Below are positions 5,600-62,050 of a DNA stretch of 64,000 nt, one piece after another; position 1 is the first letter of the stretch, and every line of letters begins with the position of its first letter. The notes beneath the pieces are model-generated. The model did not search any database. It was not told where the DNA came from and saw only the letters and a program-made list of their open reading frames with translations. The position numbers and the translations under genes are program-made. Source of the DNA: Euglena gracilis (Eukaryota); assembly GCA_039621445.1 (NCBI GenBank), contig CP154954.1, positions 20,446,642-20,510,641 on the forward strand, given 5' to 3'.

Positions 5600-6562
5600 T
5601 ACTACAAAAAAGAGGTGCCGGACGCCGGTTCTGTCCAAAGCCCGGCGTTCCAAACGCCGGTTCCGTCCGAAGGACGGAACCGGCGTTTGGAACGCCGGGC
5701 TTTGGACAGAACCGGCGTCCGACACCTCTTGTTTAAGCCGGCGTTTTAGAGACGCCGGGCTCAGGACAGAACCGGCGTCCCCAACCTTCGGCCAAAGGAC
5801 ACTCCCAGGACCAATCTCCGACCTCTGATCTGCAATGTCACACCACTTTGCACTTCACCAAATTCCGGCGATCGCGAGGGTATTTCTGGCTGTGTCAATC
5901 GTCCAGGTGTAAAATCACCCCTCGATCGAAAGCTCTTTTCATCAGACGACTGGCGATCACCACCAAATTCAGCCACGTCGCCTGGAGCTCTTATTTTCTG
6001 TCAGTGGGGAATCCTAATTTCACAACTCTGGTGCCCCCCAAGGCCCTCAGGTCGTTGATTCGAAGAGGAAAAACGTTTCTGTAAGGTTTATTAAGCATCT
6101 TAAACCAAAAATCACTGAAAATTGCGACAAATTTCGACTCAGATTCTGGCCGATCCGACGATCGCGAGCGTATCTCGGGCTGCGTGCAACGTTAGGGTAC
6201 CAAGTTACCCCTCGATCGAAAGCTCTTTTCAACAGACGACCAGCGGTGCTCATCAGATCTTTCCACGCTGCACGGTACTCTATTTCCAAAACTGGGCCAA
6301 TTTTCACCAAATTTGGATATCCACCCTAGTGGTCCCCAGATGGCAAAATTCATTGTCCTAGATGGTTGAAACACTCATACCAGCACCTTAGGGCCACCTT
6401 TGGGCACTTTTGGTGACATTTTTAGGAATGAAAACCGGACGCCGGGGGCTTTGGACAGAACCGGCGTTCCTAACGCCGGGCTTTAGGACAGAACCGGCGT
6501 CCGGAAGCCCGTGGGGGGGGACGCCGGTTCTGTCCTGAGCCCGGCGTCTCAAACGCCGGCTT
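5600..6562 (-). mobile_element. Family A TSD-less hairpin element (Helitron2/Helentron-like architecture)
   Basis: Empty site at 62958/62959 (gcaaactc^aaaatggg). 59-bp stem with GAA loop at 5610-5730. Asymmetric inverted repeats at 5735-5782 and 6517-6562. No TSD. Confidence 0.85.
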
Positions 6563-9399
6563 AAAATGGGAAGATGGCTCTTTGGTATACACCATGATCA
6601 GAATTTCCAGGTGAGAGGATGGGCTGAACGCCATGGGCTGTAAAAAATCGACAAAATGGAAAAGACAACAGGAGATGGGAACGGTGTCAACAAAAAGGAC
6701 ACAAAATGGGAAATGTGTGCAGTGGTTGCAGGGGGACATCCTAGGATTAGCATTGATCATGCCGAACAAATAGGAAATAACAAATGGACACTCTTTGCAT
6801 GGCCAACACCAATTGTCTTCCCGAATCCCATCAACTACAGTGTAAAGAAATGGGAAGCATTCCCTTAGAGACTCGTTAGGTCACGACCTTCACCCATCAC
6901 AAGCGGTAGGGGGGTCCCACGGGACCCCTCCACCCATGCCTGGGCTCCAGCAACTCACATTTTTTGAGGGGCAAGGATAAATTTTTGACTTATCACTTGT
7001 TTTTGCAACGTTCTTTTTCCTTCTCCCCTCTTCTTCGTTTCATCGCATCAAGCATTGCAGAAAAGCCTCTTCAAAAAAAAGGACACCAAGCCACTTGGTG
7101 GGGACGCGGGGGGGACGCGGGGGGGGGGGACGCGGGGGGGACGCGGGGGCTCAACCCCCATTTAGTCCTAATTCATGTGACTTTTCTTCTTCTGGGTGTC
7201 TATTTTTTTTTGGTCGCATTCACCATGTTTTGAAAGCCCCTGGAGGGGTTCAAGTGTGGAGAAGCTGGAAATGCTGTTGCCACTGGCCGCAGGTACTGTG
7301 GCCGGTGCTGGTATTGCTTTGCGCCTGAAAAGGCCTTGCTTCTGTTTTCTGGGCGCAAAGGCCCCCTATTCAAGTTGTTTGGTGAAGCATTCAAGTTTGG
7401 GTGAAGCCGAAGAAGTTCAAGCAATAACTGAAGTTCAAGAACTATCAAGTTCTTGGTGAACTTCACCGGTGAAGTTCACCGATGGGTTAGGCAGAGGTGG
7501 GGGGCCCGGGACCCCCCGGTGAACTTTCAAACGGTGAACTTCACCATAGGGGGGGGAGGGGGTCAAAATGACCAAAGTCTACTGCCTGATCCCATGAGGA
7601 GTAAGTGGACAGACCCCTTGTCAGTCCTGTACCCTCGTATTGCTGCTCGTCCAGGAGGCAAACCTGTGGGGCAGGTTTCATCAAACAACCACCTCCCCCT
7701 GTGGGGTAAGCACACCAACGTTTGCCACAGCCTTCGTACGGCTTCACCACAACACTGCACACGGTCGGTGGAAAAACAAACGCTCTGTCGTTCCACCCAG
7801 AAGAACTCTTCGGAAAACGCCCGAGGCACCGCAGCCCCTGCCCCTTTTCAAAGACAAGGCACGGAGGACAGCAGGGTCACGCAGAAAAGGAAGACGCTAC
7901 AAGGCCCAGGCGATACCTCCGCTCGACACGACAAAAGGTCTCGGAAGCCCATGGGGGGCATTTGGCCCGACCAACCTAGCCGGCTGGCAGACCAACCTAG
8001 CCGGGTGGCAGACCAACCTAGCCAGCCAACATGCCGGCTGTCCAGATGTTTGTCCAGATGAAAGCCACTATCGCTAGCCGCCCGGCTATCCAGACCAAAC
8101 AATACGTACGCGCGCTGTGTACGTATTGTGCTAGGGGGACTAAGTTCGTCGGGGCCAAACTTCGCCCGGGTGAATGTTCGGACCTTAGGAGCTCCGGACA
8201 AAAAGATGCCTGCCGGAGGCACCCCCCCCCCCGTAGTGGAGAAGCGGACCACGACCGGCGCGAGCATTCGGTGATGTGTCCTGACCGTCCCCCCAGTCAC
8301 GCAGGGTTCCCCCGGGAAAAAAGGTGCAGAACATTAACTCGCAGGTGTGTTACATTTTCTGCAGAAGCCTGATTTGATCATTTACACAAGGTGCGCCCAA
8401 GGCCTCGCAAAAAAAACCTAAATAAATCCAGCCTGAAAAGCAAAAGGATTTGTTTCAAGGGGGCATAACCCAAAAAAATACAAATAATAATACAGGGGGT
8501 GGCGTGCAGACCAGCAGATTGCACTTACAATGCAAAACCCCAACGGCAGGTTGGTACACCCCTCCCCCCCCCCCTCTCCGAGTGCCTCGCCACGTAGCCG
8601 GACCCCCTCGCCACCGGGATTTTCGCGATTTTTTGAGATTTTCGCGATTTTTTGAGGGAAAATTGCTTGGCCCCCCTTCTCACATAACAGGGCAAAGCAC
8701 AGAACCAGGGAAGAAAACAACATGCAGTGACAATTAAATCTGCACATGGGCCATGGGGGGGCCACCAGTCCAGAGCCAAATGAATGTCGATAGAGAGGCC
8801 AATGGCCCAAAAGCTGGGTGGGGACCACAGCTGCCGGTGGCCACCAGTGGGGACCGATGTGGACCACAGGGACAGGCCACGGGCCAATGAATAAAAATTC
8901 AAGTTACAGCACAAACTGGTACAGTGCACTTGTGGGCTGGCACGGAGAGGTTGGCGGGCTGACAAAACTGTGGCATCTGAGAGGTCCCAGGTGCGGAAGG
9001 AAGGAGATGCGTCGCCTGAATCCATGGGCTTGGACCAGGAGCCACCGGTTTGAGTAGTTGTCAGGTGACAAAATGTCCGAAATTTTTTGTGTTTTGTATT
9101 CACCTCAGGGCTCAATGGGGTCTTGAAATTTTCAAGCGGTTTTCCGCAGTAATACACGGTGGGTAGCACAGCTTCATCCATACGTCTCTTTTGGCCCTCG
9201 CCACAAGGAGAACCTGCTCATGACTCCCTGTGCGCACACAGGGCAGTGGTAGCTATACTGAGGTTGCTGTACAAAGAGATCTTCGGTGACTTGGTGAGAG
9301 GTTACCCCCCCCCCATTATGCACCTCCCCCCGGGAGGCCGAAACTGGGGGGGAGGTACACTGCTTCCATACCAACCCGCTACAATTCTCTGTAGTGACT

Positions 9400-10796
9400 C
9401 CAGATGAATGCTCACAACACTGGTGGCAACAGGAACTCACCAAATCCTCAATTGACAATTTGCTCGCCAAACTGCCCCCCAGGGATCAAGCCCGTTTGCT
9501 GGGGGTGTTCCCCCCCCACCCCCCCGCCCCCCCCCCCCCCCGCGTCCCCCCTGCATCCCGGATTTTGGCCGGGTACATTTTTTCGGTCGACTAAAGGAAA
9601 AGTACACACAAATTTTGTTGACGCCAAAGAAAACGAGTGGGGCCAGTTGGGCAATTCCCCCGCCCCCCGCGTCCCCCCCCCGCGCAGTGGTTTCGGTCAC
9701 GGTTGGATGGCATCCCCTCCCAACTTCGCGAACCACTGCATAATCAAACCAGTTGACTACTGCCTGGGCCCGAAATGGTGGCTGGGCTTGCAAATATCCC
9801 CGACTTCACCTGATGCACTTTGTGAAGGCTGCCAAAGTGCGGTGGATCCGTTCGGGGATCACTGGATGTGCTGCATCCGGAACAACTTCTCTCTGCGCCA
9901 CAACGCCGTACAGGACGCTCTTTTCACACTTTTGTCCAACACCGGCCAAGGGGTACAGAGGGAGGTCCCAGTTCCAAATCAACCCGATGGCAGTCTACGC
10001 CCTCCTGACCTGTTGTTGGCCAGTTGGCAAGATGGTCAACCAACAGCAGTCGACATTACAATTTGCCATTGCTGGCAAGCTTCAGAAAGAACAGCATCGA
10101 GAGAGCTTTGGCGCATATTCCTAAAGAGAAAAGAGACCAGCAAGCGCCTCAAGGAGGTTAGGCAGGGGTGGGGGGGGGCTGTGGACCCCCCCCGGTGAAG
10201 TTCACCGGTGAACGTTCACCGGGGGGGAGGGGGGGGTACTTTCGGCGGTGAAGTTCACCGGTGAAGTTCACCGGTGAACTTCACCGTTTTGATGGTTGGG
10301 GGTGAAAATTTCACGGGTAAAATTTTGCTCCTTTCCTCTCAAAATGGTCATTTTGAGGTTGATGCTTCATGGAATTTTATCGAAATTTCCGAAAACTTGC
10401 CTGAAATGCCATTTTTTGGCCATTTTTGGCCAAAAAAAAGTGCTCTCTTGGTGAACTTCACCGGTGAAGTTCACCGATGGGTTAGGCAGAGGGGGGGGGA
10501 GGTGGTCCGGGACCCCCCGGTGAACTTTCAAACGGTGAACTTCACCATAGGGGGGGGGGAGGGGGGTCAAAACGACCAAAGTCCACTGCCTGATCTCCCA
10601 AGTAACGGCCCGTGCAAAGCAGGAGGCTGGACTTTCACCATGTTGGCATTCGGAACCTGGGGAGGCGGCCTGGGTCCGGAGACGTCCAAACTGCTCGGTA
10701 GGATCATCAAACGAGCAGCTGCATGGCATGACGGTGAACAGCGAACGACGCGTCACGCCAAACTCTACCAGAGCATATCCCTAGCCCTCGCCCGAG
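9400..10796 (+). pseudogene. C-terminal CCHC + RLE region of a CRE-like non-LTR retrotransposon
   Basis: CEGC...DPFGDHWMCC, RHNAVQD, REVP, LRPPDLLL, AVDITI, K..KY, GWTF..LAFGTWGG. Interrupted by insertions at ~9500-9690 and 10153-10598. Confidence 0.9.
10153..10598. mobile_element. MITE with 3-bp TSD (GGAGGTTAGGCAG...CTGCCTGATCTCC), GTGAAGTTCAC palindromic subterminal repeats
   Basis: TSD caa/caa and imperfect TIRs. Partial relatives at ~4285-4420, ~14957-15346 and ~53264-53455. Confidence 0.85.
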
Positions 10797-16320: not shown

Positions 16321-17038
16321 CAAGGTTGACGGCTTGTTTTTTTTAAACAAAAAAAACATGTTTTTTTTGAAAAAATATGTTTTTTTAAAAAAAACGTGTT
16401 TTTTTGAAAAAAAAATTTTTTTAAAAAAAACGTCATGTACGGCTTAGGGGAAAAATTTTTTGCATTTTTTTTTTAGAAAAAAGTTCATTTTTTATCTCCG
16501 CAGCATTCATTTTTTGTTTTTTTGGGGGGGGTTTGAAAGCATGATTTTTTTGCACTAGAAAACACAGATTTGGAAATACTTTCACACAAAGAAAACTTTA
16601 GAGGGGGTGTTCCCCCCGTGACCCCTCCCTCGACCCGACCTAGGACCCTTTTCGGCCATTTTTTTTCTGAAAAACTTTGCCGGTGATGCCTAATTTGACA
16701 AAATATTCAGGTAGATTCCTATTTTTGAGGCATAAATTTTGCAAAATTTGGAATGGTGATGCCTAATTTGGTGTCAAAATGCTAATTTTAAGTTGGGGAT
16801 TCCTAATTTGGAGCCTAAAAAGGATTTTTTCCCAAAAAATTCGCTTTCGGTGATTCCTAATTTGGCCACCAAAAAATGTGATGTTCCCCCGTGACCCCCG
16901 ATGACCAAACCACCCCCGAAAATTTTTCTTCAAAAAATGGCCATTTCGCAAGGAAAAAGGTACATGTTTTTTTTGTGCTATTTTTAAAAAAAACATGTTT
17001 TTTTGTTGTTTTTTTTTTAAAAAAAAACATCAACCCTG
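16321..17038. mobile_element. hAT-like MITE (CAAGGTTGAC...TCAACCCTG)
   Basis: Perfect 8-bp TSD atggcacc at 16313-16320 and 17039-17046. Confidence 0.92.
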
Positions 17039-17149
17039 ATGGCACCCGACCCGGAGACGTGTTCATCACCCGGTTTGACGCCAATGGACCCGCTGCCATC
17101 GATGTCACTGTCCGGCACCCACTGGCATCGTCCAGGTCACCCCCAGCTC

Positions 17150-18864
17150 TGTGACAAGAACTGTGTTTGGGCCAAGTGTTGGGGGAGCCTGGGGGCGGGG
17201 ACCGCGGCGCCGAAGGCGCCGTGGTCGCCCCCAGGCCCCCCTAAAACCTTGGCCCAAAACACTGTTCTTGGTTTAAAAACGTGTTCAGCCCGCCAAATGC
17301 CTGCCCTGAAATTCGTGGTCATGAACACGTTTTCAATGAGGGCATCTGTGGCAATGACACATTTTCAATGAAGCCATCTGTGGTTAGGCACGTTTTCAAT
17401 GAGGGCATCTGTGGCAATGACACGTTTTCGATTAAGGCATCTGTGCTCAGGCACGTTTTCAATGAAGGCATATGTGGCAACCCTGAGTAAAAAGCAAAAA
17501 ACGCTGTCATGAAAAATCGGCGGGTGGTTGCGAGGCCGGGTGGTCCTCAACGAGTGAGGCGGGTCGGGGGCACTCTACAACACGACAGAAGGCTAGGTTG
17601 CCTTGGAGCACAACGAGACAGAGTGGCGGACATCACTGAACACGACACGCTTTACACAAAAAAGAGCCATACTTTGGTGGCCGCCGCAATCTTGGCAATG
17701 AAAATGATATGCCAAACCGCAGGCGTCACAGACAACTTTGTTCAGCTCCACACAATTTGGATTTTTGGGAATGGGAACACCACAAAAACCACATTTCTGC
17801 TGTTTTATAGGCAGTCGGGACACAGCACAAGGGACAGGGGGTTGGTCAGGGGAGGAAACGGAGCTGCTGACCACAGGAGCGGAACGTTGCTCGGCGGTGG
17901 GAAACACAGACGGAACATCGGTCAGGTCCTGATTTTCGACCGAGTGTTTTGCGGAATGCCCGAGCGACGGCATTCACGTATGTCTGAAAAGAGGTTGCCG
18001 AACGATTCCCTGAAACGAACAAAGTTCCCGACTGCTGCTCACGTTGAGCCACACATTGTTCAAAGACGCTCGCCTCATCGAACAACAGGCTGGGTTCCAG
18101 CTCCCATCCCGTCCAGGCAACAAAGAAAGCATCCAGCTCAGGATAAGAGGCTTGCCGATGTTGACACAGTTTGGCAAACTCCAAACAGTTGGCAACAGCA
18201 GCAAGCTCTGCACCTACGGAGCCGGACTTTTTCTTTGTGTTGCCCTGTGCCAGCAAGGTGCCATGAAGGGGGTCAACCTTCGGCTTCTTGGCATCTTGCT
18301 GGTATACCGCGAGAGCAGCCAGGAACAGTTCCGTCCTAGGGGGAGGTGGTAAAAGACCATTCACAAAGTTAGCCGTGCGTTTCGCCATAGTGGGAGGGCT
18401 GCGGAAAAAGGGTGGGGGTGACACGTTTTCAATGAGGGCATCTGTGGCAATGACACGTTTTCAATGAAGGCATCTGTGGTTAGGCACGTTTTCAGTTTTC
18501 AATGAGGGCATCTGTGGCAATGACACGTTTTCAATTAAGGCATCTGTGTTCAGGCACGTTTTCAATGAGGGCGCCGTTTCTTGGGTCCGAATTTCACAAA
18601 TTCGCGTTTTTGACCCCTTGCGTGAATCATGACCACGAATTTCAGGGCAGGCATTTGGCGGGCTCTGAACACGTTTTTAAACAAATTGTGGCTGAGCCCA
18701 GATTTCAGCCTGAAAACGTGTTCAGGGGGCCCCCTTCGGGAACCCCCTGGCTGAACACGTTTTCAGGCTGAAATCTGGGCTCAGCCACAATTTGTGTATA
18801 GAAACCGTGTTTGGGCGAAGATTTAAAACTTTTAACGTCTCGAAATCGGCCCAAACACGGTTTC
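17150..18864 (-). mobile_element. Family G TSD-less hairpin-ended element carrying a gene
   Basis: Terminal GAA-loop hairpin at 17156-17269, TTC-loop hairpin at ~18681-18794, second hairpin at ~18799-18864. Inverted repeats at ~17278-17330 and ~18620-18675, plus ~31-bp tandem units. Inserted at gctc^aagt. Confidence 0.8.
17593..18388 (-). pseudogene. Element-borne gene: helical N-terminal domain plus PHD-like finger, frameshifted near 17935
   Basis: ATG at 18388, preceded by a pyrimidine tract + CAG acceptor. C-terminal CGFC...CDAC...YHFHC...FC pattern. Confidence 0.65.
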
Positions 18865-19798
18865 TACTACAAAAAAGAGGTGGCGTTCCGGACGCCGGTT
18901 CCGTCCGAAGGACGGAACCGGCGTCCGGAACGCCAGGCTTTGGACAGAACCGGCGTCCGCCACCTCTTGTTTAAGCCGGCGTTTTAGAGACGCCGGGCTC
19001 AGGACAGAACCGGCGTCCCCAACCTTCGGCCAAAGGACACTCCCAGGACCAATCTCCGACCACTGATCTGCAATGTCACACCACTTTGCACTTCACCAAA
19101 TTCCGGCGATCGCGAGGGTATTTCTGGCTGTGTCAATCGTCCAGGTATAAAATCACCCCTCGATCGAAAGCTCTTTTCATCAGACGACTGGCGATCACCA
19201 CCAAATTCAGCCACGTCGCCTGGAGCTATTTTCTGTCACTGGGGAATCCTAATTTCACAACTCTGGTGCCCCCCCAAGGCCCTCAGGTCGTTGATTCGAA
19301 GAGGAAAAACGTTTCTGTAGGGTTTATTCAGCATCTTAAACCAAAAGTCACTGAAGATTGCTACAAGTTTCGACTCAGATTCTGGCCGATCCGACCATCG
19401 CGAGCGTATCTCGGGCTGCGTGCAACGTTAGGGTACCAAGTTACCCCTCGATCGAAAGCTCTTTTCAACAGACGACCAGCGGTGCTCATCAGATCTTTCC
19501 ACGCTGCACGGTACTCTATTTCCAAATCTGGGCCAATTTTCACGAGATTTGGATATCCACCCTACTGGTCCCCAGATGGCAAAATTCATTGTCCTTGATG
19601 GTTGAAACACTCATACCAGCACCTTAGGGCCACTTTTGGGCACTTTTGGTGACATTTTTAGGAATGAAAATCGGACGCCGGGCTTTGGACAAAACCGGCG
19701 TTCCTAACGCCGGGCTTTAGGACAGAACCGGCGTCCGGAAAGCCCGTGGGGGGGGGACGCCGGTTCTGTCCTGAGCCCGGCGTCTCAAACGCCGGCTT
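18865..19798 (-). mobile_element. Family A TSD-less hairpin element, second copy
   Basis: Homologous to 5600-6562, with the same ends tc^tactac...ggctt^aa. Confidence 0.85.
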
Positions 19799-19828: not shown

Positions 19829-20240
19829 CAGGGTTGACGTTAAAAAACAACAACAAAAAACATGTTTTTATAAAAAAACCCGCAAAAAAACATGTTTTTT
19901 GAAAAAGCAAAAATTGACCTTTTTCCCTGTGAAATGGCCATTTTTTGAGGAAAAAGTTCTAAAGTCATTTTTTTTGGTCATCAAAGTGACGTTTTCTTTC
20001 GTTTTCCCAGACCCTTCATCCAAAAATACTAAAATCATGGTTCATGTGAAAACCATCACCCTTTACGGACTACGAAGTTGCAAAGATAAAAAAAATGACC
20101 TTTCTCCTTTAAAAAAGATTCAAAAAAGTTTTCACCCAAACCCTCCGTGGCATTTTTTTTTGTTTTTTTATAAAAAATCATATTTTTTTAAAAAAAGACA
20201 TGTTTTTTTTGTTTCAAAAAAAAACAAGCTGTCAACCTTG
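19829..20240. mobile_element. hAT-like MITE (CAGGGTTGAC...GTCAACCTTG)
   Basis: Perfect 8-bp TSD acaggagg at 19821-19828 and 20241-20248. Confidence 0.92.
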
Positions 20241-27703: not shown

Positions 27704-30116
27704 GTCCAAAGGGGGCTGGGAACCCTTCCCAGGCTGTATTTTGCAATGCCGACTCACTGGGCTCATGCGTCAAAAATGGGCCCAGCGCTGCCCCGCCCAG
27801 GGTTGACAAGGAGGTCTCTGGGGCCAAAATTATGCGATGATGGTGCTTTCTACGCTTTCAATGGCGAGTGCCAAAGTAACTTGGGCCACACACATAGATT
27901 CACTGAACACCTGTGCGACCCCCCCTGGGGGTGGGTTTTCGAGAGTGGGTGGGTGGGTCGGGGCCTCTGGACCACAGCCAAAATCGTCCCAAAACGCTGG
28001 AAAAAATTTACGTTCAGCAAGGCCAAAACCCTGACCCATGCGCACCCTACCCCTCAGCGGGGGATTGTTTTACTTAAGTCTCAGACCCCCCCCCCCCCAG
28101 GGCCGCCCCCAGGAGGGAAGGAGGGAGGGAGGGTAGGTCATGATCCCCTGGAGGGGGGTCAGATCTTTCCTCCCCCTGTAAAAATACGCACAAAGCGCCA
28201 GAAATTTTTGGGGATTTGAAATTTGCCCCCCCCAAATGGCATTTTCGGGCATTTTTTTTCTCACCGACTCTATCAAAAATATTGTGCAATGCACACACAA
28301 ACACATATCTTATGGCGGGTTCAACCCCCCCCCCCCCCAAGAAGGGGAGCAGGGGTGCCTACATCATTTTCAGTTTGGTGACATTGGGGGTCCCCAGGGA
28401 CAAGCCGAGTGCTTAACCCCCCCCTACGGGGGGCCCTCCCTCTTTTTTTTGTGCGAAGCAACAAAAAAATTTGGACTCAAGATTGTCTCCCCCAAGCCCC
28501 CCACCCCCAAGGTGTGCGTTGCACAGAAATGCTCTCACCAGTAGGAAGGATGTGGTTGCTTCGGTGCCTGACTGTTGTTCAGTCAAATCCAGCCTGCTCC
28601 TCACCATGTTGTCTGCGGCACCTAAGCGCCAAGGGCAGCATGCCAGGTAAGCAATGCCGCATGTGCGGCCCCTCAATGACCCCCCCATTGGGTGTCGGCC
28701 GCCGTGTCAGTATATGATGTTGTGCGTGTACGGCGTACAATGGTGCCTCTGCAGGGTCTGATACTTTGGGGTGGTGGAATGTGGACCATCAAATTAAAGA
28801 GGGCTGTCACCGCCCCCCACCTCCCACGCTTCCTCCCTGATGCCTGAAATGGTCGGGGTCCCTTGTGAAGCCAGGGTCTCTGGGTCAGGAGGTCAGGAAG
28901 TTGTAGCAAACCGGTTCTCGAATTGCCAGGGACAAATGATGGGCGAGCACCCTGCCGTCACAGCGAGCTCCTTCCGCAGCCTCTCAACCCCTGCCTCCGA
29001 TAGGCTGAATTTGACCAACCTGGGGGGGGAGGGGGGGGGGCAGGGCAGAACGGGAAGGCCTGGTGGGGGGGGGTGGTCGACCCCCTCCGACACCCTGGTT
29101 GTTTGGCCGACTCCCGTTCTGCTTTGAGGGAGGGCCCCTCCCCGGGAAGGTGGCCCAGACCTGTACTGCGCTGGAAAAACCGGGCCACATACCACCCCCA
29201 CAAAACTGTCCTCTACCCACTTTTCTCTCACAGGGACCTGATAGTCTGGCTCCTGCCCCGTCTCTTGACAGTTTTTCCCCCACATTTTACAGCAATTTCC
29301 CACAGTGAAGAAAACTACAAACACTTTTTCCAGGTTTCTGGTCATGAACATGTGTGAGCTTTATTTTGGATTCTTCTGTTGGCGGCAAGCAACTGTCATT
29401 TCCCCCTCTGATCGAGACCCCCTCGGAAATTGTCCTCTGGTCCTGCACTCGCTTGTGCGTCCTCACAATGCGTCCTCACAATGCGTCATCACAATGCGTC
29501 ATCACAATACGAGGAAAGTCGTCTTTAATAATGAGGAAAGGTGCTGAAAACCCACCCCAAACACCATGGTCCCCAACCATTACAACGCAAGCTTTTGGGC
29601 ATTGGCTTCGGAAGTTATCATTGTTTTGCACAATACCTTAAAGAGGGGACGTGTTTCGGGTTACCTGACAGTTAGGCCCTGGGCCAATCCGTGTCACCCT
29701 GGCTCGGTCACCCCCCCCTGGTGCATTGGGACAGTGCTGAAACAGGTTGTGTGTTCAAGGATTTCCTTTCTGTCCCAAACATATTTAAAAGTATTCATCT
29801 CAGTTTGAATCTTAAGCCCCCCCCCCCAGTTGTTTGTTCACAAAAACAAGGGAACGCCGTCACACAAGACGCTGTATCAGACCTTCATTTGGGCCCTTGT
29901 TGCAAGTGTTAGGCCGGATGACCTCCTTCCTGGCCTGACCCAGAGCCTTTCTCGCGCTTTCTTGCTGGCCTCCACACTGCTTTTCTAACGTCTATTTTTT
30001 TTCTTCACTTGTTGCAAGGGGGGAATGAAACTATGTTTCTTTTGCAGCCTTTGCATTTTTTCGCTTTTGGTGTTTTTCTTGCATGTTTCGAAACAGTGTC
30101 CATGCATGAATGCATG

Positions 30117-30301
30117 CATGTATGTATGTATGTATGTATGTATGTATGTATGTATGTATGTATGTATGTATGTATGTATGTATGTATGTATGTATGTATG
30201 TATGTATGTATGTATGTATGTATGTATGTATGTATGTATGTATGTATGTATGTATGTATGTATGTATGTATGTATGTATGTATGTATGTATGTATGTATG
30301 T

Positions 30302-30341
<40 letters not shown>

Positions 30342-30796
30342 ATGTATGTATGTATGTATGTATGTATGTATGTATGTATGTATGTATGTATGTGTGTGTA
30401 TGTGTATGTATGTATGTGTATGTGTATGTATGTATGTATGTATGTATGTATGTATGTATGTATGTATGTGTCTGTCTGTATGTATGTGTATGTATGTATG
30501 TATGTATGGTATGTATGTGTCTGTGTGTATGTGTGTATGTATGTGTGTATGTATGTATGTATGTATGTATGTATGTATGTATGTATGTATGTATGTATGT
30601 ATGTATGTATGTATGTATGTATGTGTGTATGTATGTGTGTGTGTATGTATGTATGTATGTATGTATGTATGTATGTATGTATGTATGTATGTATGTATGT
30701 ATGTATGTATGTATGTATGTATGTATGTATGTATGTATGTATGTATGTATGTATGTATGTATGTATGTATGTATGTATGTATGTATGTATGTATGT
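30117..30796. repeat. (TATG)n microsatellite
   Basis: Direct reading, with a few TG interruptions. Confidence 0.97.
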
Positions 30797-31649
30797 AGTA
30801 TGCATACACACCCACACACTTGCGTTTTTTTTTTGTTTTCTTGCTCGTTTTTGTATTTTTGTGCCGCTTTTTTCAAAGTCCACGTTGCATTCTCTCCCCC
30901 CGTTTGTTGTTCACTTCTGTGCTCTTGATATTTTCACAATCAATCTTCACATTGTGCGATTTGTGATGAAATGCGTAGATGGAGCCCCTCTTTGTTGAAA
31001 AATTGAGACAGTAATCATCTCATTAGAGTTTTTGGGGGCAGAAGTAGAGTATTTGCAAAAATAGTTTCACAAGGGTTTTTTGCAGACCATTCAGGTATGT
31101 GCTTCCTCTCGCGCAGTATTGTGCAATCAAGGGCTCTTCAAGAAAAATACATGAGAATTATTGAATCATTGAAACGTTTTCGGAAAGGGGTGGCAAGTCG
31201 ACAAACAATTGCATGCGGTGATGGCTCCAGATTAACCCTGAATATTCAACGATTGCTCATTTTGTGGTAATTTCCTAACTTTTGCTCTTTTGCTCTTTTG
31301 CTCTTTTGCGTCCCCAAACTTTTGCAGTCTAATGTGTCCATTTCGAAAATTGATTGAAAATTGGCATGGCGGCCGTCCACATGACAGGGCAGGGGATGAT
31401 ACTTCGGTCTGCATCGTTGATTCTGATGAATTTGACCCCCTGGGAGGACAAATATCACTGCGCTGGTTGAGTGCCCTCATTCCTCCTCGCAACAGATCAA
31501 TGTCATTTCTTGCAATCTGCCCTGTAGCGACCATAACAGCCGATGTGTGATGGGCCCGAAGCGGAAAGGGGATCGGCCCTCACGTTGATGGGGAGGAGCC
31601 TCCCGCATTTTTTTTGTGGTCCTTTTAATACAATTCGTCTCAGAAAAAT

Positions 31650-32782: not shown

Positions 32783-33678
32783 GTGTGTTCTTATCCCAAT
32801 GACCCGCTGGAACTGTGCCAAAATAGTTTCGACTCTTTGGGTATTTTTCCCTGCTAAAACATGGTAAACGATACCTTAAACGATGCAAGAAGACAGTTCA
32901 TACTCCGCCCCTAAAACATTTCATGACAGCCGCTGCTGTATTTTTTTGGCACGTGTAAGTGACGGTGTGCAATTTGCCTCAGCTGTTTTTTTTTGCAATT
33001 TGCTGTTGTATATTTGTCGTTTGTGGAGACAGAATTGCATTTTACCCCCCCCCCCCCGTCCAACGACCCCCCCCCCCCCATGTCCAACGACCCCCCTATG
33101 CCCAACGACCCCCCCCCCGGTCAGAGGACACCTTTTCGGACGTTTGATGTTTTTCTGCAGGTGTGTGAAAACTGGAGGTTTGCCAGCCCTGAAAGGCTTT
33201 TCTTCTGCCCTTCTCTTCTACACTGCAGCCCATCGTCCATTAAAATGTTCCCTCTGGGGAGTTTTGTGCATTAACGAGCGCTCCACCGGGGAGATAGTGC
33301 CTGCGGTTGTTGAAGGAGCTTCACCACACTCCTAACATTCCACCATGACATTTTCGGGTGTTTGCTGGGTTGTATGATGGAGTGAAGATGGTTGATGGAA
33401 TGCAGGGATTGTCGACTGGGTATCTTTGTTTTTTTCCCGATTTTGAAGCAATGTGGATTTTTTCGATTCCAAAGTGATCCTGTTTGCTGAGGGCAAGAGG
33501 GGAACATGGGGCTTGGCACACAGTTTTGGAGGCAAACTGTATTTCACACGCGATGTGCTGCGGGATGATTTCATTCCTCCAATTTGGAGGTCCCAAAGAT
33601 GGAAGAACCGAAGAAAAAGAAGGAAGCTGTACCTGTGGTGGGAAAGGATGGAAAAGTTGTGCAAGAGTTTGCCGTGAT

Positions 33679-34039
33679 CGTGTGTGCTGTGCGTGTGTGC
33701 GTGTTGCGTGTGTGGGGTGTGCGTGTGTTGGGTGTGGGTGTGTGCGTGTGTTCGTGTGTGCGTGTGTGCGTGTGTGCGTGTGTGCGTGTGTGCGTGTGTG
33801 CGTGTGTGCTTGTGTGCGTGTGTGCGTGTGTGCGTGTGTGCGTGTGTGCGTGTGTGCGTGTGTGCGTGTGTGCGTGTGTGCGTGTGTGCGTGTGTGCGTG
33901 TGTGCGTGTGTGCGTGTGTGCGTGTGCGTGTGCGTGTGCGTGTGCGTGTGCGTGTGCGTGTGCGTGTGCGTGTGCGTGCGCGTGCGCGTGCGCGTGCGTG
34001 TGCGTGTGCGTGTGTGTGTGCGTGTGTGTGTGCGTGTGT

Positions 34040-34106
<67 letters not shown>

Positions 34107-34137
34107 TGGGTGTGTGGGTGTGTGTGTGTGTGTGTGT

Positions 34138-34188
<51 letters not shown>

Positions 34189-34232
34189 TGTGTGTGTGTG
34201 TGTGTGGTGTGTGTGCGCGCGCGCGCGCGCGC
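33679..34232. repeat. Compound (TGTGCG)/(TG)/(CG) microsatellite
   Basis: Direct reading. Confidence 0.95.
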
Positions 34233-34668
34233 CGCGTGCGGTGCATGAAATTCAATGAAACACACCTGTGGGCAGGATACGTGCGAACGGCTGTGGCTAA
34301 CAGGTAAACCAGAGGGATGGGGGATGGGAACGGTTGAGACAGGCTCACAGCTCAGCGGAGCGAAAAGGCTTTGGCGACGGAATGGGACCATATTTTGTGC
34401 AATTGAACAGAGGAGGGTGAAAATTGGAGCACTCGAAACTAGGAAAATAAAAAAGATAATGGGGTGATGGTTTGCCGGAGGACTGGATCTGGGGGTGTGA
34501 TCATCCAACACCATTGCAAACGATGGCGTGTGATTTTCATTCACCAATGCCCATCACTTTTCTTGAACCTTCAGAGTGATAATAAGACTTCATTGATGGT
34601 CAGCAATTAGGAAATGGCAAAGAGCCTCAGGGCTTTGAGTTTAGTCTCTAAGTTGCTCCCACCACCTC

Positions 34669-42476
<7,808 letters not shown>

Positions 42477-45425
42477 CTGTGAAAACAGCATTGTATTGTC
42501 TGGGATTGTGTGTGGGTAACCCGCTGGTCCTGGAAAACGAGATATGGGCTCAAGGCGAAGTGAGTGGGGGGGGGGGGGCACTTTGGGGGGACCCCCCAAA
42601 GAGCCCATTGTGGGGTTTTCCCCCAAAAGCCCCCACAATGCTTGGCACAATGTTTGTAGGGTGTGGGTGGACTGCCGAGAAAATTTTCATTATTTCTGAA
42701 AGGGTCTGTCACACAATATATGCCCCTATTGACCCTCTATCGCTCCGCATTTGCCGTTTTGGCCGCCGACATGCCTGGCTTTCGGCTTGTTTTCGTGGCC
42801 CAAACCGGCCATTTGGGGTGTTTGGGGGGGGGGGGGGTTGGTCAAAAAAATCGGTTTTTTTGATAAAGAAATCTCAACAATGAAGCAAAATGAAAGGAAA
42901 TGTCCGGAGTCCAAAAATGAAATGGGATGCAACCACGCTAAAAAAATTCCCAACTATCGATTTGACCTTTTTTTCGCCATTTTGGGTCAAAAATCAAAGG
43001 GGCGTTGTCCCCGTGCCCCCCCCCCTGACCACCCCCCAAGACCCCCCGACCCAGATTTGAGACCTCAAAAATTTTGACGGAAACCCCAAGCAATTTGGCC
43101 CTTTTTCGCGGTTTTGCAAGGCTCGTGCCGACCCCAAATCCCCCGTCACCCCCCGTGACCCCCCCAAACTTGTATGGGAATCCTGGAGGGGGGGGGACCC
43201 TTCCAAAACGGGGGGGGGGGGGGGACCGCCCTCCGACCTCCAGTTTTCGGTCGACGAACTTCTCGCCATTGAGTGCAAAATTTCGGCCATTTTTTTGGGT
43301 CAAAAGAATCGGTTTTCCCGAAATTTATCAAAAATGGTGGGGAATCAAAAGAAATGTCCGGATCCCTAAATTGAAGCCCACTAAATGCCCCATCTAACAG
43401 TATTTTGATTTCCCTGCAACTCCTGCCCAGCCCGAGTTACAGCCATTTTTGGCCCATTTTGGCCATTTTGCCAAAATTTCATATTGAGCCTCAAGGGGAT
43501 CCTGAAATACACACCCGGCACGAAGCACAGCAAAAAAAAATCCCCCCCCCCCGCAGAGGAGGAAGAGGGGTGGGGGGACCCCCTTCTGAAACTGGGGGCG
43601 CACCACCTTACCCCCCTAGGGATGGGGGGTGACCCCCCCTACCCACCTCATGTCTGCGGAACTTCCCATACAACCCTGACCCCCCCCCCTGCAACCCGGC
43701 CCACCCCAAAAAAAACTTAAAACATCTCCAAATGGTGGCCAATCAAAGGAAATAACTGGGGAGCTAAAAGCACCCCCACACAATCACAATCACAATCACC
43801 CAATCACACCCCCAATCACATCCAAACAGGTGTAAAATCAAATATTTTTGTGTCGACCACCGTAATTGGACTGTGACATCTTGACAGGCTTAATAATTTA
43901 GGTTGACGAGACAAAAATTGGGAAAGCAAAGGAACCCCCCGCATCCCCCCCCCCCCCCCGTCGCAAAACCCCCCGGGCCTGACCCAGCCCAAGCAGGCCG
44001 GCGGCCTGGCACGGGTGCGCAGATGGCCCTGCAAGTCTATGGCGGGTGATAAAGCGTCTTCGAGGCATTATTTTAGGTCCCCAGTGATTTCTCTTCATCC
44101 TGAAACAAAAGTCATGACATCCATTTGGCTAACACCGGCTCCTTCAAACCCCAATTCGCCAATTGGGGGAGGGGACAATCGGGGGGGGGGGGGGCAAATA
44201 GGGTATATGAGGGATACTTACCAGTTTTTTTTTGCACAAATAATCTCAAAAATTGCCAAATATCCCCAGATTGTGATTTGTTCTGCGTCTCAATAGTCAG
44301 AAAAAGCACCAAAAACACAAAAATGAGATGGCAGACCACACAAAAGAGCATTTTTGCACTCCTCCCAAAACGGAGGATATTATCCTCTAATCCACCAATT
44401 TAATTTTTCTGGAGAAAGCCCGCCAGGCCTGAAATGTTGTAAAGAACCTTCATTTGGGATGGTTTTTTCACCCATCGAACGAAATATCTCCAAGGCAGGT
44501 ATTCTGAGCAACCCTTTTTTCCAGCCTGCCACTTTTGCAAGATGATTCACCTTTTGCGAGAACTATGTCCGACACACCGGTTCGGGTGTGAAGCTGGCAC
44601 CTGTGACCGGTGCCTGGGTTCGGGCTGCCCATGCTCCCCGCGTCCCCCCTCCCATCGTGGCTGAGCGAAGGGGGCCCCCCGATTTCAGGCTGAAATCCGG
44701 GTCAGCCACAGACATTCATTTAGCGTGGTTCACAAAGGCCCGGGGTGTGCCTGGGGGCGACCGCGGCGCCTTAACCTCCTCCTAACTCTTGGCCCAAACA
44801 CATACCTTGACATAGAAAACCGGTCGTAAACTGGGACGTGGGGGGACACGGGGGGGGGGGGGGGGCACGAGGAGATAACCCCACCGTCGGGCCAGGCCAC
44901 CGGTCCGAGCCGGGCCACTGCATTGGTTTAAAAGAATTTTTTCTCAGGGGAGAGGCAAGACCAAAAAAAACTTTTCGTAGGACGACACATGCGAAAGACA
45001 AAAATTGAGATCGCTCATGTGTGGTCACGCTTCATGTGTTGGTCACAGGGGGGGGGGGGGAAGCTTACGAGGGGGCGTGGGGGGGTGGTCACGGGGGTGC
45101 ACACCTGTCATCGCAAGAAAGGTTCCCATTGCACGAAATTTAACAAAAAAATGAGAAACCCGCCCTCTCAAAGTGTCACCCACCCCAAAGTGGCAAAATT
45201 TTTTGGCAAGGCCTGGTTTGCTCCCCTCAAAGCGGCCATTTTTTAATAAGCGCCTTTGGCGCTGAAGGCAAAATTTTGATCCCCCCCCTGTGCCCCCCCC
45301 CCCCCCCGTGACCTGGCCCACCCCCGATCTATTGTGCCAATATGGGGATGTCAACCACCATTTTGGCCAATTTTCCTTTGGCAATTGGGGTGGATTGGAC
45401 ACGGGGGGGAGCTCAGCCCCCCTGG

Positions 45426-57100: not shown

Positions 57101-60100
57101 GTCTGAAGGAGCCCATTAGCCAAATATGGGGGGGGGGTGAGGGTAAAGTGCCAGGGAGGGGGGGGGGGGCACATGTGTTGTGCTTTCTTGCCGTTGGATG
57201 GCGTGCGTGTGTCGGGACCCAAGGGCTGTTTTGCTCCATGGATTCATGGGTTAGGGTTAATTTTTATCTTTGGTCGCGAACAGATGGCTACACTGACGTT
57301 GGTGGCAAGGTTCCCGTTTTTTTTTGTTTTACAACAAAGCAAAAAAAACTTTCATGAGTAAAAAACGGTTTAAAAACGGTTTTTTTATTTTAAAAAAGGG
57401 TGTTTTTTTAAAATAAAACACAACAAATAGGAAAAAAACCTGTTTTAAACAACTTGTATAAAAACAGCCCGGGAACCTTGGGTGGCATATCAAGGAGAGG
57501 ACATGGGAGACAGGAGTGTGAAGCGGGTATGGTTCATGTGGAGGGGGTGGGTTAACCAAGGTCGACAGGTGTTTACTGGGAATACGGGAGGTGGCAACCG
57601 GCAGATAGGTCAGTGTCATTTGACAGGTTGGTGTAGAAGCTCCAAACCAGTTGTTTAGAGATTTCTTTGGCCAGGAGTGAGAGTCCTTGCCACACTTCTG
57701 CTTGGGTTTGGCGCTGAAGCCAACTCTCCCTTTGCCCTAACAAGGCTTTAAGGAGAGTGGACATCAGAGAATGGCCTTGCTGCCCCATGCCGCCAAACAC
57801 AAACGGGGTGAGGCGCCAGCCTCGTCTCGAACATGTTGCATCATATTTGCGGTGTTTGTCTCTTCTTGTTTTTCTTGCCAAATGGGAAGTTGTGCGGCAC
57901 GGCTCATAGGGTTGCTTGGGGTCTGTGTGTGACGGATGGTGACGTCGATGGCGACCGGGCCTTCACTGTCAAGGCGAGGAATGAAGATATCGCCAGGCTG
58001 AGAATTGTCATCAGCCCGTTGTTCTTTTTTTGGCTTGGAATCTGGCGAGTTGAGCCAAGGAGGTGAGGAAGTCTTGGACCGCTGCGTGTCGCGTGTTTCG
58101 AACCATTCAGAGCGCGAAAAGGTATTTAGTCCTAATTCATGTGACTTTTCTTCTTCTGAGTGTCTATTTTTTTTCGTTGGCATTCACCATGTTTTGAAAG
58201 CCCCTGGAGGGGTTCAAGTGTGGAGAAGCTGGAAATGCTGTTGCCACTGGCCGCAGGTACTGTGGCCGGTGCTGGTATTGCTTTGCGCCTGAAAAGGCCT
58301 TGCTTCTGTTTTCTGGGCGCAAAGGCCCCCTATTCAAGTTGTTTGGTGAAGCATTCAAGTTTGGGTGAAGCCGAAGAAGTTCAAGCAATAACTGAAGTTC
58401 AAGAACTATCAAGTTCTTGGTGAACTTCACCGGTGAAGTTCACCGATGGGTTAGGCAGAGGCCCGGGACCCCCCGGTGAACTTTCAAACGGTGAACTTCA
58501 CCATAGGGGGGGGGGGAGGGGGGTCAAAATGACCAAAGTCTACTGCCTGATCCCCTGAGGAGTAAGTGGACAGACCCCTTGTCAGTCCTGTACCCTCGTA
58601 TTGCTGCTCGTCCAGAAGGCAAACCTGTGGGGCAGGTTTCATCAAACAACCACCTCCCCCTGTGGGGTAAGCACACCAACGTTTGCCACAGCCTTTGTAC
58701 GGCTTCACCACAACACTGCGCACGGTCGGTGGAAAAACAAAAGCTCTGTCGTTCCACCCAGAAGAACTCTTCGGAAAACGCCCGAGGCACCGCAGCCCCT
58801 GCCCCTTTTCAAAGACAAGGCACGGAGGTGTTGGGGACGCGGGGGGGACGCGGGGGGGGACGCGGGGGGGGGACGCGGGGGCACCACCATTCTAGGGACC
58901 ATGATCAAAGCTGACGTTTTTTTTTAAAAAAAATACTTTTTTTAAAAAAAACCAACAAAAAAGTGTTTTTTTTTAAAAAAATGGAAAGTGTGTTTTTTAA
59001 AAGAAGTTTTACAACGCAAAAGTCTTGTCCTCTAAAAAAAAAGGCTCCAAAAACCGGTGCGTTTCCACACCCAAAATGGAGTTTTGTCAAAAATGGCCCG
59101 ACATTCATCCCAAAAAATGTGATGGTCGATAAGAATATCCTACAAAATTCCCTTTCAAAAAAATTCTTTGGAGGCTAGGCGCGCCACTGGGGGGGGGGGT
59201 CCGGGACCCCCCTCCCCCCCCCCGCGGCCCCTCGGACCCCCCCCTCCCCACTGTGCCTAGCATAGCCAAGAAAAAGGCATTTTTTGAGCAAAAATGGCCC
59301 AAAAATGGCCAAAAATGACCATTTTTGGACCCGAAAATGGGCCGCGCACCGCCCGGCGGCCCTCCCCCCCCCTCAGCGGTGTCGGAACAATTTTTTCCCG
59401 GGGGGGGGGGGGCGAGGAACCGACAAAATTTGGAGCACATCCTTTTTTCCCCGGCGCGAAGGAAGCGCCGAGGAAAATTTTTTTCATGGCACAACCAAAA
59501 TGTACTTTTTTCTGTCCCCCTGGCCCCGAAGGGGCCGAGACGCTAACGCCTTTTTTGAAGTCCAATGCTCCAAAAACTTGAGCTAGAAAGCGAAATCATG
59601 GGTAGAACCCCTTTGGAAACCTCCCAATTCAACCCAACTGTCGACTTCGCAACCTGGGGGGGGGTGAAGAAGCCCCCTCACCCCCCCCCCACCATGCCTA
59701 GTCTCCTTTGAAAGGCATTCTCTAGCAAACTCTACTACAAAAAAGAGGTGCCGGACGCCGGTTCTGTCCAAAGCCCGGCGTTCCAAACGCCGGTTCCGTC
59801 CGAAGGACGGAACCGGCGTTTGGAACGCCGGGCTTTGGACAGAACCGGCGTCCCACACCTCTTGTTTAAGCCGGCGTTTTTTTCTTTTTTTCTTTTTTAG
59901 AGACGCCCGGCCAAACGCTCAGACCAACCGCGGCAAACTTTTGTGAATGTCCCAAAAACCTTCGGCCAAAGGACACTCCCAGGACCAATCTCCGACCTCT
60001 GATCTGCAATGTCACACCACTTTGCACTTCACCAAATTCCGGCGATCGCGAGGGTATTTCTGGCTGTGTCAATCGTCCAGGTGTAAAATCACCCCTCGAT

Positions 60101-62050
60101 CGAAAGCTCTTTTCATCAGACGACTGGCGATCACCACCAAATTCAGCCACGTCGCCTGGAGCTCTTATTTTCTGTCAGTGGGGAATCCTAATTTCACAAC
60201 TCTGGTGCCCCCCCAAGGCCCTCAGGTCGTTGATTCGAAGAGGAAAAACGTTTCTGTAAGGTTTATTAAGCATCTTAAACCAAAAATCACTGAAAATTGC
60301 GACAAATTTCGACTCAGATTCTGGCCGATCCGACGATCGCGAGCGTATCTCGGGCTGCGTGCAACGTTAGGGTACCAAGTTACCCCTCGATCGAAAGCTC
60401 TTTTCAACAGACGACCAGCGGTGCTCATCAGATCTTTCCACGCTGCACGGTACTCTATTTCCAAAACTGGGCCAATTTTCACCAAATTTGGATATCCACC
60501 CTAGTGGTCCCCAGATGGCAAAATTCATTGTCCTAGATGGTTGAAACACTCATACCAGCACCTTAGGGCCACCTTTGGGCACTTTTGGTGACATTTTTAG
60601 GAATGAAAACCGGACGCCGGGGGCTTTGGACAGAACCGGCGTTCCTAACGCCGGGCTTTAGGACAGAACCGGCGTCCGGAAGCCCGTGGGGGGGGACGCC
60701 GGTTCTGTCCTGAGCCCGGCGTCTCAAACGCCGGCTTAAAATGGGAAGATGGCTCTTTGGTATACACCATGATCAGAATTTCCAGGTGAGAGGATGGGCT
60801 GAACGCCATGGGCTGTAAAAAATCGACAAAATGGAAAAGACAACAGGAGATGGGAACGGTGTCAACAAAAAGGACACAAAATGGGAAATGTGTGCAGTGG
60901 TTGCAGGGGGACATCCTAGGATTAGCATTGATCATGCCGAACAAATAGGAAATAACAAATGGACACTCTTTGCATGGCCAACACCAATTGTCTTCCCGAA
61001 TCCCATCAACTACAGTGTAAAGAAATGGGAAGCATTCCCTTAGAGACTCGTTAGGTCACGACCTTCACCCATCACAAGCGGTAGGGGGGTCCCACGGGAC
61101 CCCTCCACCCATGCCTGGGCTCCAGCAACTCACATTTTTTGAGGGGCAAGGATAAAATTTTTGACTTATCACTTGTTTTTGCAACGTTCGTTTTCCTTCT
61201 CCCCTCTTCTTCGTTTCATCGCATCAAGCAATGCAGAAAAGCCTCTTCAAAAAAAAGGACACCAAGCCACTTGGTGGGGACGCGGGGGGGACGCGGGGGG
61301 GGGGGGACGCGGGGGGGACGCGGGGGCTCAACCCCCATTTAGTCCTAATTCATGTGACTTTTCTTCTTCTGGGTGTCTATTTTTTTTTGGTCGCATTCAC
61401 CATGTTTTGAAAGCCCCTGGAGGGGTTCAAGTGTGGAGAAGCTGGAAATGCTGTTGCCACTGGCCGCAGGTACTGGTACTGTGGCCGGTGCTGGTATTGC
61501 TTTGCGCCTGAAAAGGCCTTGCTTCTGTTTTCTGGGCGCAAAGGCCCCCTATTCAAGTTGTTTGGTGAAGCATTCAAGTTTGGGTGAAGCCGAAGAAGTT
61601 CAAGCAATAACTGAAGTTCAAGAACTATCAAGTTCTTGGTGAACTTCACCGGTGAAGTTCACTGATGGGTTAGGCAGAGGTGGGGGGCCCGGGACCCCCC
61701 GGTGAACTTTCAAACGGTGAACTTCACCATAGGGGGGGGAGGGGGTCAAAATGACCAAAGTCTACTGCTTGATCCCCTGAGGAGTAAGTGGACAGACCCC
61801 TTGTCAGTCCTGTACCCTCGTATTGCTGCTCGTCCAGAAGGCAAACCTGTGGGGCAGGTTTCATCAAACAACCACCTCCCCCTGTGGGGTAAGCACACCA
61901 ACGTTTGCCACAGCCTTCGTACGGCTTCACCACAACACTGCGCACGGTCGGTGGAAAAACAAAAGCTCTGTCGTTCCACCCAGAAGAACTCTTCGGAAAA
62001 CGCCCGAGGCACCGCAGCCCCTGCCCCTTTTCAAAGACAAGGCACGGAGG
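54136..62050 (+). repeat. Right copy of the segmental duplication of 1-7867, continuing into further tandem units to the window end
   Basis: Contains duplicates of the RT pseudogene (~54520-55755), the RLE fragment (~57620-58015) and the MITEs. Confidence 0.95.
59733..60737 (-). mobile_element. Family A hairpin element (duplicated copy of 5600-6562)
   Basis: Same termini and flanks. The segment ~59880-59960 is altered. Confidence 0.85.

Follow-up and report, generated by a model that had tools for sequence, protein, structure and literature searches.

A stretch of 64,000 nucleotides (nt) of Euglena gracilis DNA (contig CP154954.1 of assembly GCA_039621445.1, positions 20,446,642 to 20,510,641), referred to at its full length as the window, contains a minus-strand open reading frame (ORF) located between the two tandem arrays of an inverted-repeat element. 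This ORF is probably the dead, internally deleted recombinase gene copy of a Crypton-like tyrosine-recombinase (YR) DNA transposon. The protein encoded by its intact part is predicted to have the core-binding fold of tyrosine recombinases, its longer relatives carry a putative catalytic domain directly after this part, and in the window copy the frame is interrupted at a junction where longer copies of the same family run on.

The ORF begins at a minus-strand ATG (18388-18386) and its reading frame, designated frame A, is open for 180 codons. A second minus-strand frame (17973-17593) contains cysteine and histidine residues with the spacing C-x2-C-x17-C-x2-C-x4-H-x2-C, while the last C-x2-C of this zinc finger and the stop codon at 17633-17635 are supplied by a third frame alone. 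The window copy thus has two breaks, a frame change at about 17941-17945 and a 1-nt deletion at 17687/17688. The features of the gene are as follows:

18399 to 18418, minus strand: run of pyrimidines and then GCAG, 10 nt ahead of the ATG, as read in the sequence
17939 to 18388, minus strand: coding region of a 150-residue, all-helical N-terminal domain, putatively a core-binding (SAM-like) domain of the tyrosine-recombinase family
17941 to 17945, no strand: internal-deletion junction, with loose contig ends at 17945/17946 in sequencing runs X15, X16 and X20, in three variants
17846 to 17848, minus strand: TGA closing frame A, after 30 out-of-frame codons
17633 to 17793, minus strand: coding segment of a C4HC3 (PHD-type) zinc finger with its stop codon, split over two frames in the window copy
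17687 to 17688, no strand: copy-specific 1-nt deletion that breaks the finger; contigs of other copies have an extra base here

As the original prediction had stated, the ORF is on the minus strand amid a tandem array; the arrays on its two sides have periods of 31 and 32, and the pyrimidine run and CAG that it had noted upstream are present. The matches of most relatives of the protein begin at residue 1, the same methionine as in the window ORF, so that no coding exon is placed upstream of 18388.

Relatives were sought with ORF residues 1-150 as the query of an exhaustive HMMER search of 1.84 billion representatives. There were 84 relatives at E ≤ 1e-3 and 39 at E ≤ 1e-10, with none at E ≤ 1e-30; the best (E 3.0e-29) was 46% identical. 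Many of the 84 were only 80-250 residues long and truncated in appearance. One protein, P0065, a 614-residue internal repeat protein with six short matched stretches, was left out of all alignments. A Pfam scan of the window ORF gave no family and two word-indexed protein searches with the same query gave no match. When the family profile was used in a word-indexed search, six family members only were recovered, without any annotated relative except one entry named 'hypothetical protein'; three of the six listed proteins had a source name, and all three were 'hypothetical' or 'uncharacterized'. Metagenome contigs, queried with the family alignment and the window protein, yielded pattern matches and no relatives, and viral contigs, queried with the family alignment, yielded none. 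A full-length family member, P0038, is an NCBI hypothetical protein filed under the carnivorous plant Genlisea aurea, on a contig of 1892 nt, and this entry may be a contaminant from another organism.

The AlphaFold2 model of residues 1-150, made with an 84-row alignment, was confident, with a predicted local distance difference test score (pLDDT) of 95.3 and a predicted template modelling score of 0.85, and consisted of seven helices. A model of the same domain from the single sequence (pLDDT 42.5) was unusable and was discarded. In a VIA-align fold search of the domain model against 48,161 representative chains, the first seven rows were all N-terminal or core-binding domains of tyrosine recombinases (Z 6.5-5.4), and 17 of the first 25 rows (Z 6.5-4.3) were described as integrases or recombinases. 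The first row was a Haloarcula integrase, matched in its N-terminal domain (Z 6.5), and the matches that followed were the lambda Int core-binding domain, residues 74-156 (Z 6.4), XerA 4-86 (Z 6.0), two more lambda Int entries (Z 5.9), the N-domain of a Lactococcus prophage integrase (Z 5.7) and, in row 7, Cre 23-104 (Z 5.4). In each of these seven rows the matched part was the N-terminal core-binding residues of the chain. Lower in the list were ALOG (8p5q, Z 4.1), Ndc10 (3sqi, Z 3.9) and QRICH1 (9hjt_H, Z 3.9).

The resemblance of the helices to recombinase core-binding domains, which the original prediction had read from the sequence, was therefore borne out by the fold search. A SAM-like core-binding fold is supported as the predicted structure of the 150-residue domain, not because of the Z values but because 1) a single domain type is enriched among the fold matches, 2) the homologues carry a recombinase catalytic domain directly after this domain and 3) a search with language-model features independently gave QRICH1-like and Phage_int_SAM_1 clusters. 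In the latter search, QRICH1-like clusters accounted for 8 and Phage_int_SAM_1 for 5 of the 30 nearest clusters, at a recognition value of 2167 that is below the tool's 2300 mark.

Nine relatives of 367-491 residues have in common a second domain of about 250 residues that directly follows the N-terminal domain. For comparison with known enzymes, the 13 Phage_integrase matches of Escherichia coli K-12 were aligned with lambda Int to give a template of 14 sequences; the E. coli recombinases were used instead of the lambda Int relatives from viral contigs, which were all 99-100% identical and useless as a profile. The hhalign comparison of a 14-sequence family alignment with the 14 known recombinases gave a probability of 72.5% and an E of 3.3e-5 over 169 columns, the whole catalytic domain. 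The control with the reversed template gave an E of 0.2, and all eight column-shuffled templates gave E values of 0.63-0.87. In this alignment, using P0014 numbering, R234 (in TGxR) fell on Arg-I, K267 (MKN) on the β-hairpin lysine, K357 on the second-box histidine, R362 on Arg-II and Y392 (VYH) on the nucleophilic tyrosine. The third-box histidine position is variable in the family and offset in the hhalign alignment. Type IB topoisomerases likewise have a lysine at the position of the second-box histidine. The Pfam Phage_integrase model (PF00589) matched 7 of the 83 family proteins scanned, all below threshold; six of the seven matches were at the start of the domain, and that of P0055 covered profile positions 3-158 of 172. 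When P0014 residues 185-405 were compared by language-model features, the Phage_integrase set accounted for 17 of the 30 nearest clusters (score 0.97). Taken together, these comparisons support the assignment of the second domain of the long relatives as a putative YR catalytic domain, although the matches to single domain models are weak when taken one by one.

The relation of the window copy to other copies was seen in Logan contigs of four runs (X1, X15, X16 and X20) that were placed on the window stretch. The stretch is contained in 20 of the 24 listed runs, 14 of which are 'DNA?' runs of one organism at 0.65-0.74 of the sampled words; uncovered parts and small word shares in the run list were not counted as evidence. 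Run X1 contributed 12,741 contigs, 4003 at ≥99%, 4651 at 95-99% and 4087 at 90-95% identity. The summed word depth, 1.7e5 to 2.1e6, was similar over the ORF, the arrays and the repeats. The designation of the ORF as a cargo gene in the original prediction is unfitting, since the depth of the ORF region is similar to that of the arrays in this amplified family.

In the longer copies, the minus-strand frame A continues past 17945 into a stretch that ends in the conserved VPSS linker of the family, whereas the window copy jumps at this point, out of frame, to the sequence preceding the finger. The break that had been described as a frameshift near 17935 is a real change of frame, located at about 17941-17945, and it is a deletion junction rather than a frameshift, because the longer copies diverge exactly at 17945 in three runs. 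Many further joints, linking 17755-17871 to 17947-18069, represent other internal deletions. The family contigs of 1446-2011 nt carry the recombinase ORF only and no reverse transcriptase. When 10 homologues were compared with the whole window by tblastn, residues 1-150 were the only part matched (E down to 1e-34), without any catalytic remnant, in agreement with the earlier statement that no catalytic motifs were visible, and the gap from the junction to the finger is only about 175 nt in the window copy. About 700 nt or more that encode the catalytic domain are missing from it. With the catalytic part gone, the junction out of frame and the finger broken, the window copy encodes at most a 180-residue, core-binding-only protein. 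The window contains no second copy of the ORF, the arrays or the inverted repeats. Some copies in the X15 and X16 contigs have lost some 20 nt from the pyrimidine tract, and their start codon is altered (loose ends at 18414/18415); the start of the ORF is therefore not kept by all copies.

When the finger was read with its 1-nt break passed through as X, both the C4HC3 order and the PHD spacing pattern were matched in a regular-expression search based on the canonical PHD spacing ranges. An extra base behind 17687, present in one covering contig each in X15, X16 and X20 and in 25 contigs in X1, restores the full C4HC3 pattern. Scans with the finger frame, a broken query that lacks the last cysteine pair, gave only GATA (0.19) and Prok-RING_1 (0.21) in Pfam and only TFIIH p44 (E 0.89) in a phmmer search of the PDB. 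The finger is homologous to the C-terminus of a family protein of 255 residues, P0010, which consists of the N-terminal domain, the linker, the first catalytic residues and the second half of the finger. The alignment score was 68, compared with a shuffle mean of 22.4, a standard deviation of 4.3 and a maximum of 49, and none of 2000 shuffles reached 68. P0010 was the sole match to either finger pattern among 87 proteins, and it matched the pattern of the second half only. Sequence comparison thus places the finger downstream of the recombinase gene and, in two lineages or more, within the element family. That recombinase and finger formed one polypeptide in the parent can only be inferred, because among the family proteins the finger is found in P0010 alone and is absent from the tails of 10 long homologues. 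Of the deleted YR-PHD transposase in the original prediction, the deleted recombinase and the C4HC3 finger downstream of it were recovered, while their fusion keeps this inferred status.

The ORF lies between the two arrays, which are in turn enclosed by the inverted repeats:

18678 to 18798, no strand: adjoining 121-nt hairpin with 48-nt arms, 98% alike, and the AAAACGTGTTCAG motif in both arms
18627 to 18682, minus strand: upstream terminal inverted repeat arm, 56 nt, beginning with GTTTAAAAACGTGTTC
18419 to 18572, minus strand: upstream tandem array, period 32, 4.7 copies, with units containing AAAACGTG
17325 to 17480, minus strand: downstream tandem array, period 31, 4.9 copies, running in the same direction as the upstream array
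17271 to 17324, minus strand: downstream terminal inverted repeat arm, 54 nt, also beginning with GTTTAAAAACGTGTTC; the flanks of other copies diverge at 17272/17273

The inverted repeat arms have a perfect 38-nt core and one 2-nt indel (94.9% over 59 nt), and the two arrays are 92.1% alike over 152 nt. Loose contig ends at 17273, 17277 and 17285 correspond to the element end and, in copies of the surrounding repeat that are not interrupted, to the flank. At the other side, contigs that resemble an empty site resume only beyond the hairpin at 18678-18798, and this hairpin either belongs to the inserted block or was inserted separately. Ten occurrences of the motif AAAACGTGT were counted in the window, compared with 0.79 expected, and none of 100 shuffles reached 10. 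All but one of the 10 fall within 17276-18763: the motif is present at each end of the element, inverted at one relative to the other, in five units of the arrays and in each arm of the same hairpin. The outermost sequence common to both ends is TTAA (17273-17276 and 18677-18680), and joining of the ends on a circle would create a perfect palindrome centred on it. Among the joints listed (15 of 51), there was no end-to-end joint of the element termini. Rfam gave no family in the window.

Near-perfect palindromic hairpins surround the element (17162-17261, 18678-18798, 18791-18875 and 18881-18935), and others occur elsewhere in the window (5628-5712, 44666-44710 and 59761-59845). Two hairpin types have copies elsewhere in the window, and several stems have GTGTTTGGGC/GCCCAAACAC in common. 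The hairpins around the element look like separate small foldback repeats nested in one another. On a larger scale, two pairs of inverted repeats (16321-16375/20186-20240 and 16920-16974/19904-19958), each 55 nt and 76-84% complementary, bracket a 3.9-kb region that holds the element; this whole region may form a larger foldback. A palindromic unit (an A-run, CATG or CGTG, and a T-run, with a period of 19-33) makes up short tandem arrays at 16349-16431, 16962-17026, 19841-19910 and 20163-20209.

These observations suggest how the family may have arisen. The parent protein would have combined the 150-residue helical core-binding domain with a catalytic domain having Arg, Lys, Arg and Tyr, with a lysine at the position of the second-box histidine, and the parent lineage would have carried the C4HC3 (PHD-type) finger downstream. 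The window copy is probably one member of a very high-copy family of deletion derivatives, bounded by the 54-nt inverted repeats and the 31-base pair (bp) subterminal arrays with the common motif AAAACGTGT. Such derivatives may have been moved in trans by a full-length recombinase that would bind the AAAACGTGT motif in the ends and the arrays. The two ends would be joined into a palindromic site around TTAA, with TTAA as the crossover, and the joined ends would resemble lox-type sites, which have inverted binding sites and a central crossover.

Cryptons are tyrosine-recombinase elements of fungi, oomycetes, diatoms, animals and green algae. The family resembles them in that its proteins have a tyrosine-recombinase-like domain, it is eukaryotic, and the proteins seen, on contigs of 1.4-2.0 kb among which there was no full genomic element, include no reverse transcriptase. 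Crypton integration is thought, according to PMC3212892 and PMC9977147, to be a recombination of a short terminal sequence with a like target, and the TTAA at both ends of the window element could act as the 4-6 bp terminal direct repeats of a Crypton described there. The family differs in the lysine at its second-box histidine position, in the PHD-type finger associated with it and, if these are the element's own ends, in the inverted repeats and subterminal arrays of the window element. Neither DUF3504 nor GCR1_C of Pfam was found at E ≤ 1 in 12 family proteins, the nine longest included, or at E ≤ 0.05 in 71 others. The family is probably Crypton-like in its way of working and is not placed in any Crypton group. 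A literature search found no paper, within the collection searched, on a Crypton or tyrosine recombinase combined with PHD; in the accessible part of PMC9977147, the term 'PHD' is confined to a thesis citation and to the legend of a figure, where domains are listed.

The best structural matches of the window domain are the core-binding parts of lambda Int, XerA/XerH, Cre, and the integron and Tn1549 integrases, in which the core-binding domain likewise directly precedes the catalytic domain. The window domain is larger, with seven helices, and is only 7-12% identical to these domains with about 80 of its 150 residues aligned, and the kinship was not detected by sequence profiles (hhalign, Pfam). 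In keeping its ends and losing its gene by deletion at many points, at a very high copy number, the family is like the non-autonomous derivatives of DNA transposons that arise by internal deletion and are amplified in the manner of miniature inverted-repeat transposable elements (MITEs), except that the deleted gene encodes a tyrosine recombinase and not a DDE transposase. DIRS/Ngaro elements have a reverse transcriptase/RNase H beside the recombinase, and long repeats that are split direct or inverted ones. No reverse transcriptase/RNase H ORF flanks the window copy in the ORF lists; a deletion could have removed it. That the family represents an undescribed branch, of superfamily rank, among the tyrosine-recombinase DNA transposons of eukaryotes is a more tentative proposal, and on balance a doubtful one. 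Such a branch would combine the core-binding domain, a Lys-for-His catalytic site and a chromatin-reading PHD finger with long inverted repeats, 31-bp arrays of a binding motif, a lox-like palindrome at TTAA and a MITE-like burst.

Several results weigh against a decayed YR transposon gene. The Z values of the fold search are at most 6.5, a range that the tool calls common for helical proteins. The fold of the first ~150 amino acids had been named in the original prediction as a point on which it could be refuted; VIA-align found recombinase core-binding matches, and Foldseek, run against the PDB with the pLDDT 95.3 model, returned nothing at E ≤ 0.001 (best 0.52), with Cre at ranks 22 and 27 (E about 2). 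For the catalytic domain, the best Phage_integrase score among the 83 family proteins was 19.3 bits, compared with a cut-off of 27.1, and in 15 long homologues PHROGs gave no integrase match and NCBIfam one weak XerA match only (E 0.00096). Sequence-profile searches of the PDB with the family alignments gave no matches, lambda Int as the only hhalign target gave no significant match (E 0.56), and the stretch with the proposed tyrosine draws weak helix-turn-helix matches (HTH_23 in six of the nine long proteins). The finger is not recognised by Pfam.

Further results of this kind are those that would be expected if an unrelated inverted-repeat or foldback element, mobilised by another transposase (for example a TTAA-targeting one), had captured recombinase pieces and the finger exon and was then amplified, an explanation that is unlikely, yet the most serious competitor. 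The ORF lies in the middle of one array whose units keep their orientation on either side of it, as they would after an insertion into the array, and the element ends in TTAA. Cryptons are defined and described as having no inverted repeats (PMC3212892 and PMC13465315), whereas the window element has inverted repeats of 54 nt. Among the contigs there was no complete recombinase copy bearing these ends, and the tails of all 10 long homologues lack the finger, having no similarity to it or to the post-junction segment (z -1.0 to 1.1). A capture is, however, difficult to reconcile with the preservation of the true start codon and of the gene order, N-terminal domain, finger and stop, which is the same in the independent P0010. 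Moreover, many different internal deletions of one gene coexist, which is the usual pattern of decay of an autonomous element and not that of a single capture, and no other transposase was found adjoining the element in the window, either by tblastn with the 10 homologues or by Pfam scans of six larger ORFs.

It is improbable that the ORF is a working host gene or short isoform, encoding a core-binding-only DNA-binding protein comparable to the domesticated domains of the ALOG/QRICH1 type or to a truncated-transposase repressor. The conserved start is followed by 180 open codons in frame A, the domain model is confident, ALOG and QRICH1 are among the fold matches and contigs from one RNA library tile 17451-18450. 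These contigs may be DNA carry-over, so that transcription is not evidenced by them; the locus belongs to a set of thousands of diverged copies, and its frame closes with 30 out-of-frame codons. The ALOG proteins are themselves recombinase-derived. Ndc10/Cbf2 and QRICH1 are reported to derive from recombinases in PMC3212892. These proteins, with QRICH1 grouped with ZMYM among the DUF3504 genes, are weaker fold matches and are encoded by single-copy host genes, in contrast to the decayed repeat of many thousand copies considered here. A match to an ordinary host gene had been named as an outcome that would speak against the original prediction. Neither this outcome nor a lack of structural similarity was obtained, and the relatives were found to be a diverse, often truncated family, the long members of which have the recombinase-like catalytic domain. 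An open frame arising by chance in repetitive DNA would account for the lack of a Pfam family and of any match in the two word-indexed searches; it has a negligible probability and was rejected in view of the 84 HMMER relatives (best E 3e-29) and the confident model (pLDDT 95). The decayed gene of a Crypton-like element is thus retained as the probable identity of the ORF.

The window as a whole is rich in microsatellites and palindromes and has a eukaryotic appearance. Long tetranucleotide and dinucleotide microsatellites give spurious long ORFs in several frames at 29922-30998, 33321-34553 and 39532-40098. Two plus-strand ORFs, 9398-10198 and 16882-17154, the latter adjoining the low end of the element, have in common the motif series GDH..C, RHN, RP(P/G)D.., (A)(V/I)D(I/V)T(I/V), which we take to resemble the restriction-like (PD-D/ExK) endonuclease module of some retroelement-like genes; a Pfam scan of both gave nothing. 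The Pfam scan of the six larger window ORFs gave nothing convincing (LTP_2 at E 0.027). The window also has two copies or more of a unit of some 600 nt that contains a long open frame. These are at 18975-19598 and 59947-60504, both on the plus strand, and the unit is duplicated internally with a spacing of 288 nt (19102-19232/19390-19520).

Tyrosine-recombinase DNA transposons are, to our knowledge, the least understood class of eukaryotic transposons, and their lack of conserved ends makes them difficult to recognise. The family described here is missed by standard domain libraries, having no Pfam model at the cut-off and only the weak XerA match in PHROGs and NCBIfam, and it brings a confident fold model for a predicted DNA-binding domain. 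The window provides a candidate DNA anatomy, consisting of the inverted repeats, the motif arrays and the TTAA ends, and thus concrete candidate substrates. It also illustrates that what looks like a 'cargo gene' in raw sequence can be the element's own engine in a decayed state. If the family does form an undescribed branch, it would represent a MITE-like burst to thousands of copies that was driven by a recombinase and not by a DDE transposase.

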